Notes: generated by a model not told the origin, from the letters alone. A stretch of 64,000 nt of DNA from Escherichia coli (GCF_013122565.1 NZ_CP053258.1), one strand, 5' to 3'. Shown: positions 34,098 through 34,279, counted from the stretch's first letter. Numbers and translations: made by a program.

Positions 34098-34279
34098 TAA
34101 GCCGGATAAGGCGCTCGCGCCGCATCCGGCAACAGTGCCAGATGCCTGATGCGACGCGAGCGCGTCTTATCAGGCCTACAAATTCTCGCGCCATCCGTAG
34201 GCCGGATAAGGCGTTTACGCCGCATCCGGCAACGGTGCCAGATGCCTGATGCGACGCTCGCGCGTCTTATCAGGCCTAC
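34098..34279. repeat. BIME: two tandem copies of an ~85 bp REP-containing unit
   Basis: gccggataaggcg...ccgcatccggcaac.gtgccagatgcctgatgcgacgc...gcgtcttatcaggcctac occurs twice in tandem between phnA and phnB. Confidence 0.8.

Follow-up and report, generated by a model that had tools for sequence, protein, structure and literature searches.

A two-unit BIME-2 array between yjdM and yjdN of Escherichia coli and its likeness to the K-12 REP325 locus

In the malE-malF operon, a REP element acts as an mRNA stabiliser and as an attenuator. REPs also make up the BIME-2 family, in which y and z2 types face each other in inverse orientation across a short linker and are repeated in tandem copies whose number varies from strain to strain (Ton-Hoang et al., PMC3333891). 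In this regard, gyrase cleavage sites were reported to be enriched in BIME-2, mainly in their y REPs, in the accessible part of a study that does not single out the locus discussed here (PMC6379681). Moreover, the natural target of IS621, a member of the IS110 family, is the 11-mer ATCAGGCCTAC, and 144 of the 173 mapped insertion sites fall in REPs (PMC11208160). The closest described system is REP325 of E. coli K-12, "a cluster of six repeats" of Y-l-Z2 type with U motifs connecting them. It occupies the interval from yjdM to yjdN, is apparently transcribed from the yjdM promoter and yields naRNA1-6 (Qian et al., PMC4550694).

A study of 2026 on the same K-12 array (bioRxiv 10.64898/2026.03.23.713779) revealed that the yjdM/yjdN RNA ratio, which is ~35 in the wild type, becomes ~1 after deletion of REP325, with yjdN going up ~8-10-fold, yjdM going down ~3-fold and growth being altered. 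On plasmids, the yjdM mRNA was stabilised >160-fold. The dominant yjdM transcripts end within the K-12 array, and the array alone gives rise to a ladder of hairpin-ended species where a four-hairpin product is dominant (~50% of the signal). In this line, bicyclomycin approximately doubled read-through for the full 12-hairpin array only, fragments of two or four hairpins being insensitive to the drug. In the accessible part of the same report, the effects of REPs are described as context-dependent and not uniform genome-wide.

Anatomy and classification of the array

The array described here lies in a stretch of 64,000 nt of E. coli DNA, referred to as the window, and positions are given on its + strand unless indicated. 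It is wholly extragenic, between the stop of yjdM (phnA) at 34082 and the start of yjdN (phnB) at 34348. The yjdM CDS (33747..34082, +; 111 aa) was recognised as an ORF matching Pfam PF08274 and PF03831, with orthologues annotated as yjdM, and the array would form its 3′ UTR, the first REP stem following the TGA stop (34080-34082) after a gap of 18 nt. A repeat search found two direct copies of 87 nt, 34093-34179 and 34193-34279, with an identity of 91% and an offset of 100 nt. Tandem Repeats Finder reported the array (period 100, 1.9 copies, score 318) as the top-scoring tandem repeat of the 64-kb window. When aligned in the 100-nt register, the two units agree at 83 of 100 positions, most of the mismatches falling in the inter-unit or flanking spacer.

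Each unit contains two imperfect palindromes, at 34101-34130 and 34144-34175 in unit 1 and at 34201-34230 and 34244-34275 in unit 2, and reads on the + strand as GTAG (GTAA in unit 1), a y palindrome, a 13-nt linker, a z2 palindrome and CTAC. Typing was done by comparing reads of the - strand with the y, z1 and z2 queries quoted in PMC11208160; none of the four palindromes fits the z1 query. Unit 1 opens with a y-type REP (34097..34130, +) that agrees with the y query at 27 of 35 positions and carries a degenerate GTAA at 34097-34100, a change shared by the first unit of K-12, O157 and the E. coli genome C9. Its linker, AACAGTGCCAGAT (34131..34143, +), leads from y to an inverted z2-type REP (34144..34179, +; 32/37 to the z2 query), which ends in CTAC at 34176-34179. 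A 17-nt spacer, AAATTCTCGCGCCATCC (34180..34196, +), which corresponds to the U motif of Qian et al. (PMC4550694), links it to unit 2. There, a y-type REP (34197..34230, +) begins with GTAG at 34197-34200 and, read on the - strand from 34197 to 34231, is identical to the published y query at 35/35 positions. It is followed by the 13-nt linker AACGGTGCCAGAT (34231..34243, +) and by an inverted z2-type REP (34244..34279, +) that holds an ATG at 34249, ends in CTAC at 34276-34279 and agrees with the z2 query at 34/37 positions (34243-34280, - strand). The array gives way to the 68-nt leader of yjdN (34280..34347, +), which compositional and motif scans found to be rich in C and poor in G (21 C, 7 G) and to contain a Shine-Dalgarno GAGG at 34336-34339.

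By all the defining features that a sequence can reveal, the array is a two-unit BIME-2. It shares with the family (Bachellier/Gilson/Hofnung; Ton-Hoang et al. 2012) the alternating inverse y and z2 REPs, the short linker, the GTAG/CTAC tetranucleotides (34197-34200, 34176-34179 and 34276-34279), the tandem strain-variable copies and the mismatch bulge in the stems, with nothing essential different. The single exception is the GTAA of the unit-1 y REP (34097-34100), which stands in place of GTAG and should prevent binding of TnpA-REP to that REP (PMC3333891). At 13 nt, the linkers could not accommodate the long L linker by which BIME-1 binds IHF, as defined in the same work. By analogy with the family, the array is also likely to be a gyrase-binding BIME-2. 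The first-pass annotation, which had described a BIME of tandem REP pairs of ~85 bp between phnA and phnB, at 34098-34279, was accurate within 5 nt, and its unit size compares with the 87 nt aligned, the 77-nt core and the 100-nt period.

Both units were also recovered on the transcribed strand by the Rfam model RF02564 ("nucleoid-associated noncoding RNA 4"; 77 nt, gathering score 59.5 bits), unit 1 at 34100..34176 (+) with 88.2 bits (E = 1.3e-16, full model 1-77) and unit 2 at 34200..34276 (+) with 102 bits (E = 1e-19, full model), the - strand scoring just below the gathering threshold (55.8 bits for unit 1). These E-values, together with 10 occurrences of the REP core pattern in the window against 0.75 expected, exclude chance as the origin of the array. 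The same model matches two other y-z2 pairs of the window, at 55276-55346 (-) and 56667-56737 (-), with 77.1 and 78.4 bits, and since these BIME-2 loci are unrelated to the present one, RF02564 recognises generic y-z2 pairs and not a dedicated gene. Each of the two pairs contains one exact IS621 target 11-mer, and a further z2 REP at 56777-56813 carries another one (56777-56787). Other Rfam matches in the window were a full-length STnc630 sRNA (RF02052) at 28268-28433 (-), with 177.7 bits, adjoined by a REP-like core with one mismatch (28450-28462), and a bacterial selenocysteine insertion sequence (SECIS_2, RF01988) at 52753-52807 (+), with 87.1 bits and, by implication, a selenoprotein gene at that place.

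Folding of the 276-nt region gave -118.9 kcal/mol, as compared with -83.1 +/- 4.9 kcal/mol for shuffled sequences (z = -7.3), with individual REP hairpins predicted at -20.9 to -21.5 kcal/mol each. The minimum free energy structure of unit 2 (-42.3 kcal/mol) is the two-hairpin structure of the Rfam model. A comparison of 30 units from 10 sources, 12 of them distinct, showed no change at any stem position, the differences falling in the loops, in the linker and next to GTAG/CTAC; this invariance renders a covariation statistic uninformative, covariation being present only as built into the Rfam model. A detailed view of the loops shows that the one of the unit-1 z2 REP (region 34153-34166) reads GAG and is unique in the sample, whereas the 28 units of other genomes and unit 2 of the window have CTT, CTC or CTGAC. 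The GAG loop makes the centre of this z2 REP the exact reverse complement of the centre of the unit-1 y REP (34110-34121), and resembles the outcome of template switching that "corrects" a quasi-palindrome. As a result of folding predictions, unit 1 would prefer a single long y:z2 hairpin (-47.6 vs -42.5 kcal/mol), the only one of the 12 unit variants for which this is predicted, and such a hairpin could behave differently from two separate ones.

Orthology with REP325 and variation in unit number

Judged by flanks and repeat architecture, the array is a two-unit allele, or orthologue, of E. coli K-12 REP325, the source of naRNA1-6 (RF02564 naRNA4/CssrE). In the matching E. coli regions, the RefSeq gene order is crfC(-), yjdM, yjdN, with the same flanks as in the window, and the junction TTGTATTGTGATCGGTAAGCCGG after the yjdM stop is common to K-12, O157, C9 and the window. 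The two arrays also share unit architecture, 100-nt period, orientation relative to yjdM transcription and identical REP stems. On the other hand, the window has two units (4 hairpins) against the six of K-12 (12 hairpins), its U motif is TCTCGCGCCATCC against CCCGCACCCTCC, and the loops differ. The spacer between yjdM and yjdN measures 657 bp with the six units of K-12, 258 bp with the two of O157, 159 bp with the single unit of C9 and 265 bp with the two of the window. The last z2 REP of the window keeps the CTAC that K-12 and O157 have lost, so that this allele has one more intact yjdN-proximal IS621 target. Both the type of element and the REP325 locus are already in the literature, and the feature is in that sense known and ordinary; the first-pass annotation had overlooked that the locus is the experimentally studied REP325/naRNA4 and that the downstream phn operon is largely deleted.

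This deletion, of phnC-N, sets the window apart from K-12 as well. At 34780-35290 most of the phn operon is missing, yjdN being succeeded by ~50 nt, phnO (34833-35267) and the 3′ end of yjdP (35280-35609, -); phnC-phnN, phnP and the region with the promoter upstream of phnC are absent from the phn region of the window. The same arrangement was found in only ~9-11 of 5,426 complete E. coli genomes, with identities of 96.4% at most. A REP-mediated origin of these neighbouring deletions was considered and rejected, as no REP is present at their junctions; at the phnP deletion, ATGAGCCTGACCCTCA and CCCAACCTCATCGC, two short similar sequences, have been brought together. Inside yjdP there is a 21/42-nt tandem repeat (35341-35426; Tandem Repeats Finder scores 83 and 110), which encodes a peptide repeat, as indicated by the RefSeq annotation of yjdP as a "DDRRRQL repeat protein".

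Unit number was surveyed with a repeat-free composite query, made of the 3′ part of yjdM and the 5′ part of yjdN, against the 5,426 complete E. coli genomes, from which a spread sample of 59 was read. Spans of ~926, 1026, 1225, 1325, 1425 and 1525 bp in the sample correspond to 1, 2, 4, 5, 6 and 7 units, as confirmed on representative genomes. One unit is the commonest state, found in most of the sampled E. coli, which indicates that large arrays are not needed for viability, and two units occur in the sampled O157:H7 genomes and in one O121 genome. Moreover, the units form mosaics when strains are compared, a pattern that unequal exchange or conversion among them would be expected to produce. 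The array allele of the window is absent from the 5,426 genomes, the best match being 93.6% identical over 341 nt, and the coding flanks in yjdM and yjdN have a best E. coli identity of 98.6%.

A BIME with y and z2 REPs is present at the same junction in representatives of three other Escherichia species: E. albertii carries a single unit whose first palindrome is degenerate, Escherichia sp. E1V33 carries two, with the same U spacer as the window, and two are also found in SCPM-O-B-8794, a genome labelled E. coli that represents a GTDB species of its own. In Citrobacter sp. FP75 no BIME was found at this junction, which holds only an unrelated small hairpin. The presence of a BIME at the junction thus predates the divergence of E. 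albertii. A 2-kb scaffold (JALHEL010000372.1) of a metagenome-assembled genome labelled Leptolinea sp. also bears yjdM and yjdN of E. coli type with a BIME of one unit; from its near-exact match to common E. coli alleles, this is probably E. coli contamination.

At the DNA level, the exact IS621 target 11-mer occurs five times in the window, against 0.01 expected, and two of the occurrences, both unoccupied, are in the array (34169..34179 and 34269..34279, +). These are the 11-nt targets that the IS621 bridge RNA recognises in REPs (PMC11208160), the difference here being that no IS insertion is found in the array, which may be regarded as a potential IS621 insertion site from these matches. 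It is also likely a substrate for gain and loss of units by recombination or slippage. Both properties had been put forward at first pass, as a potential IS110-family target and a recombination substrate; the exact 11-mers agree with the former, and the variation from 1 to 7 units among E. coli supports the latter.

Proposed role of the array and rival readings

The identity, anatomy, synteny and copy-number polymorphism of the array are apparent from the data presented here, and so is the yjdN start at 34348 discussed below. Taken as a whole, the array is very probably best explained as a two-unit BIME-2, orthologous to REP325, that protects the yjdM mRNA and attenuates yjdN, with a mechanism inferred from the K-12 experiments. 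The array would be transcribed from the yjdM promoter as part of the yjdM 3′ UTR, and its four stable RNA hairpins (~-21 kcal/mol each, lacking a U-tract) would block 3′→5′ decay and in this way stabilise the yjdM mRNA. The same hairpins would attenuate read-through, reducing either the transcription or the survival of the RNA that reaches yjdN, and the outcome would be an expression of the upstream yjdM far above that of the downstream yjdN. Like the REP stabilisers and attenuators of operons (malE-malF; REP325), the array is intercistronic in a two-gene operon, has hairpins without U-tracts and, by analogy, would lie directly 3′ of the more highly expressed gene.

In this strain, read-through would probably reach phnO as well, which now directly follows yjdN. 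As for termination, Rho loads on C-rich, G-poor unstructured RNA and gives rise to bicyclomycin-sensitive 3′ ends, and the leader that follows the array is C-rich and G-poor. Nevertheless, a two-unit allele may have little or no Rho-dependent part, because K-12 fragments with 2-4 hairpins are insensitive to bicyclomycin; what operates could be stabilisation with weak termination, or just a Rho-independent pause or decay block. Scanning revealed no sigma-70-like promoter anywhere in 34060-34655, a range that includes the leader between the array and yjdN. A weak sigma-70-like site does occur just upstream of the array, in the 3′ end of yjdM (34030-34059, +; TCGACG-18-TAAAAT, 9/12), and from this consensus match, transcription of the array independent of yjdM could take place in principle. 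REPs near stop codons are also said to induce ribosome stalling and trans-translation, an effect attributed to Liang, Rudd and Deutscher in 2015 that reportedly needs the REP within ~15 nt of the stop; the gap here is 18 nt.

A further proposal, which we consider doubtful, is that the yjdM:yjdN expression ratio is tuned by unit number and sequence, in a way that is inherited and evolves fast, that the two-unit array gates the orphaned phnO as well, and that the loop change of unit 1 alters this gating.

Among the rival explanations, the one that survives best is that the array has no locus-specific function, being a selfish or neutral REP/BIME (REPIN-like) insertion that owes its upkeep and amplification to replication slippage and to the tyrosine transposase associated with REPs, and is tolerated in an intergenic region that is not essential. 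We regard it as possible and, on balance, unlikely. The mosaic units and their number, from 1 to 7 among strains, are in keeping with such an origin, as are the known binding and cleavage by TnpA-REP of y/z2 BIMEs with GTAG/CTAC (PMC3333891), the Citrobacter sp. FP75 junction without a BIME and the non-essential character of both yjdM and yjdN. However, deletion of REP325 in K-12, with its shifts of ~3-fold for yjdM and ~10-fold for yjdN and its altered growth, is not neutral for the neighbours, and retention of a BIME at the junction since before the E. albertii split also argues against mere tolerance. Since neutrality concerns the origin of the array and the protection-attenuation model its effect, the two are compatible.

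It seems considerably less probable that the array is mainly a gene for nucleoid-associated ncRNAs (naRNA4-like) that act with HU to connect REP DNA in cruciform state and so compact the chromosome, the proposal of Qian et al. in 2015. In support of this view, binding of HU, a decondensed nucleoid upon REP325 deletion and rescue by plasmid-borne naRNA4 were reported (PMC4550694), and both units of the window score above the RF02564 gathering threshold on the transcribed strand; yet that model matches the two unrelated BIME-2 loci of the window as well, and most of the sampled strains have a single unit. Moreover, the accessible part of the 2026 study, which has the same senior author, describes a nucleoid volume unaffected by either REP325 deletion or naRNA overexpression, and reports neither a stable ternary complex of HU, cruciform and naRNA4 nor HU-dependent REP-REP contacts by Hi-C (bioRxiv 10.64898/2026.03.23.713779). 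A role of HU and naRNA4 in nucleoid condensation is at present disputed.

It is very improbable that these hairpins terminate yjdM in the ordinary intrinsic (Rho-independent) way: strong GC-rich hairpins do stand right after the stop codon, but the z2 hairpins are followed by the tails TACAAATTCTCG and TACCCCTCCAAT, neither of which has a T-run, a terminator scan for a hairpin plus T-run found none in 34083-34347, nor anywhere in 34060-34655, and most REPs lack a poly-U tract according to the literature.

The start of yjdN

The longest phnB ORF (34249-34782, 177 aa) starts inside the second repeat, with an ATG located in the 5′ arm of the fourth palindrome (GCCTG-ATG-CGACGC), that is, in the stem of the second z2 REP. 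Such an ORF owes its existence solely to the ATG found in each REP stem (CTGATGCG). Six independent lines of evidence indicate that the true start is the ATG at 34348, giving a yjdN CDS of 144 aa (34348..34782, +), and that the 33 codons in front of it (34249..34347, +) are a spurious, non-coding extension, as homology and frame comparison reveal. The NCBIfam equivalog NF007537 (147 positions) aligns through its positions 1-144 to residues 34-177 of the ORF, three solved homologues (PDB) align from residue 35, and Pfam domains from residues 38 and 41. The C9 annotation by PGAP gives a yjdN of 435 nt, and in all the orthologues inspected the PGAP protein begins MPLSPY. YjdN homologues of Salmonella, Citrobacter, Enterobacter, Klebsiella and others have 143-148 aa and cover 81% of the ORF (144/177). 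In 8 of 10 genomes there is no in-frame upstream ATG, GTG or TTG before a stop, and the REP upstream of yjdN is read in differing frames in different strains, whereas a GAGG located 8 nt 5′ of the yjdN ATG is found in 10/10 genomes, with the leader conserved too. The ATG at 34249, on the other hand, is inside a -21 kcal/mol stem and has no Shine-Dalgarno. At its C-terminus, the yjdN product is 3 residues short of the 147-aa K-12 protein, homology to which stops at 34779.

A PhnB/YjdN extended at its N-terminus by REP-encoded residues, for which the uninterrupted in-frame ORF from 34249 and a few database proteins of more than 148 aa might be invoked, is on this evidence the least probable of the readings and effectively refuted, the longer proteins being mutually non-homologous artefacts (internal duplication, C-terminal read-through, REP-derived N-termini). 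Homologues sharing the repeat-encoded extension were specifically looked for and none was found. The caveat raised by the first-pass annotation on the phnB start, namely that the longest ORF begins within the second repeat and that the downstream ATG with a ribosome-binding site is the sensible start, was hence correct and useful. Four small ORFs over the array, 33827-34225 (-), 33928-34194 (-), 34149-34319 (+) and 34142-34249 (+), were rejected as coding, with no Pfam match at E <= 0.1. In a different context, a metagenomic or assembly-derived database protein of 233 aa from outside the window (P0039) is an in-frame YjdM-YjdN fusion where the yjdM 3′ end, the stop codon and the intergenic region have been lost, as though the intergenic hairpin region of an Enterobacter-like genome had been removed by a deletion spanning it.

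The main value of the present analysis is one of annotation, as 33 false codons had been added to yjdN, and the current understanding of the element is unchanged. Since an ATG is present in every REP stem, calling the longest ORF gives proteins with falsely extended N-termini at any gene that has a REP in front of it. Beyond annotation, REP325 is the model REP array that was used for, and later against, RNA-mediated nucleoid condensation, and the natural alleles of 1, 2, 4, 5, 6 and 7 units constitute a ready-made allelic series for the relation of hairpin number to mRNA stabilisation versus termination.
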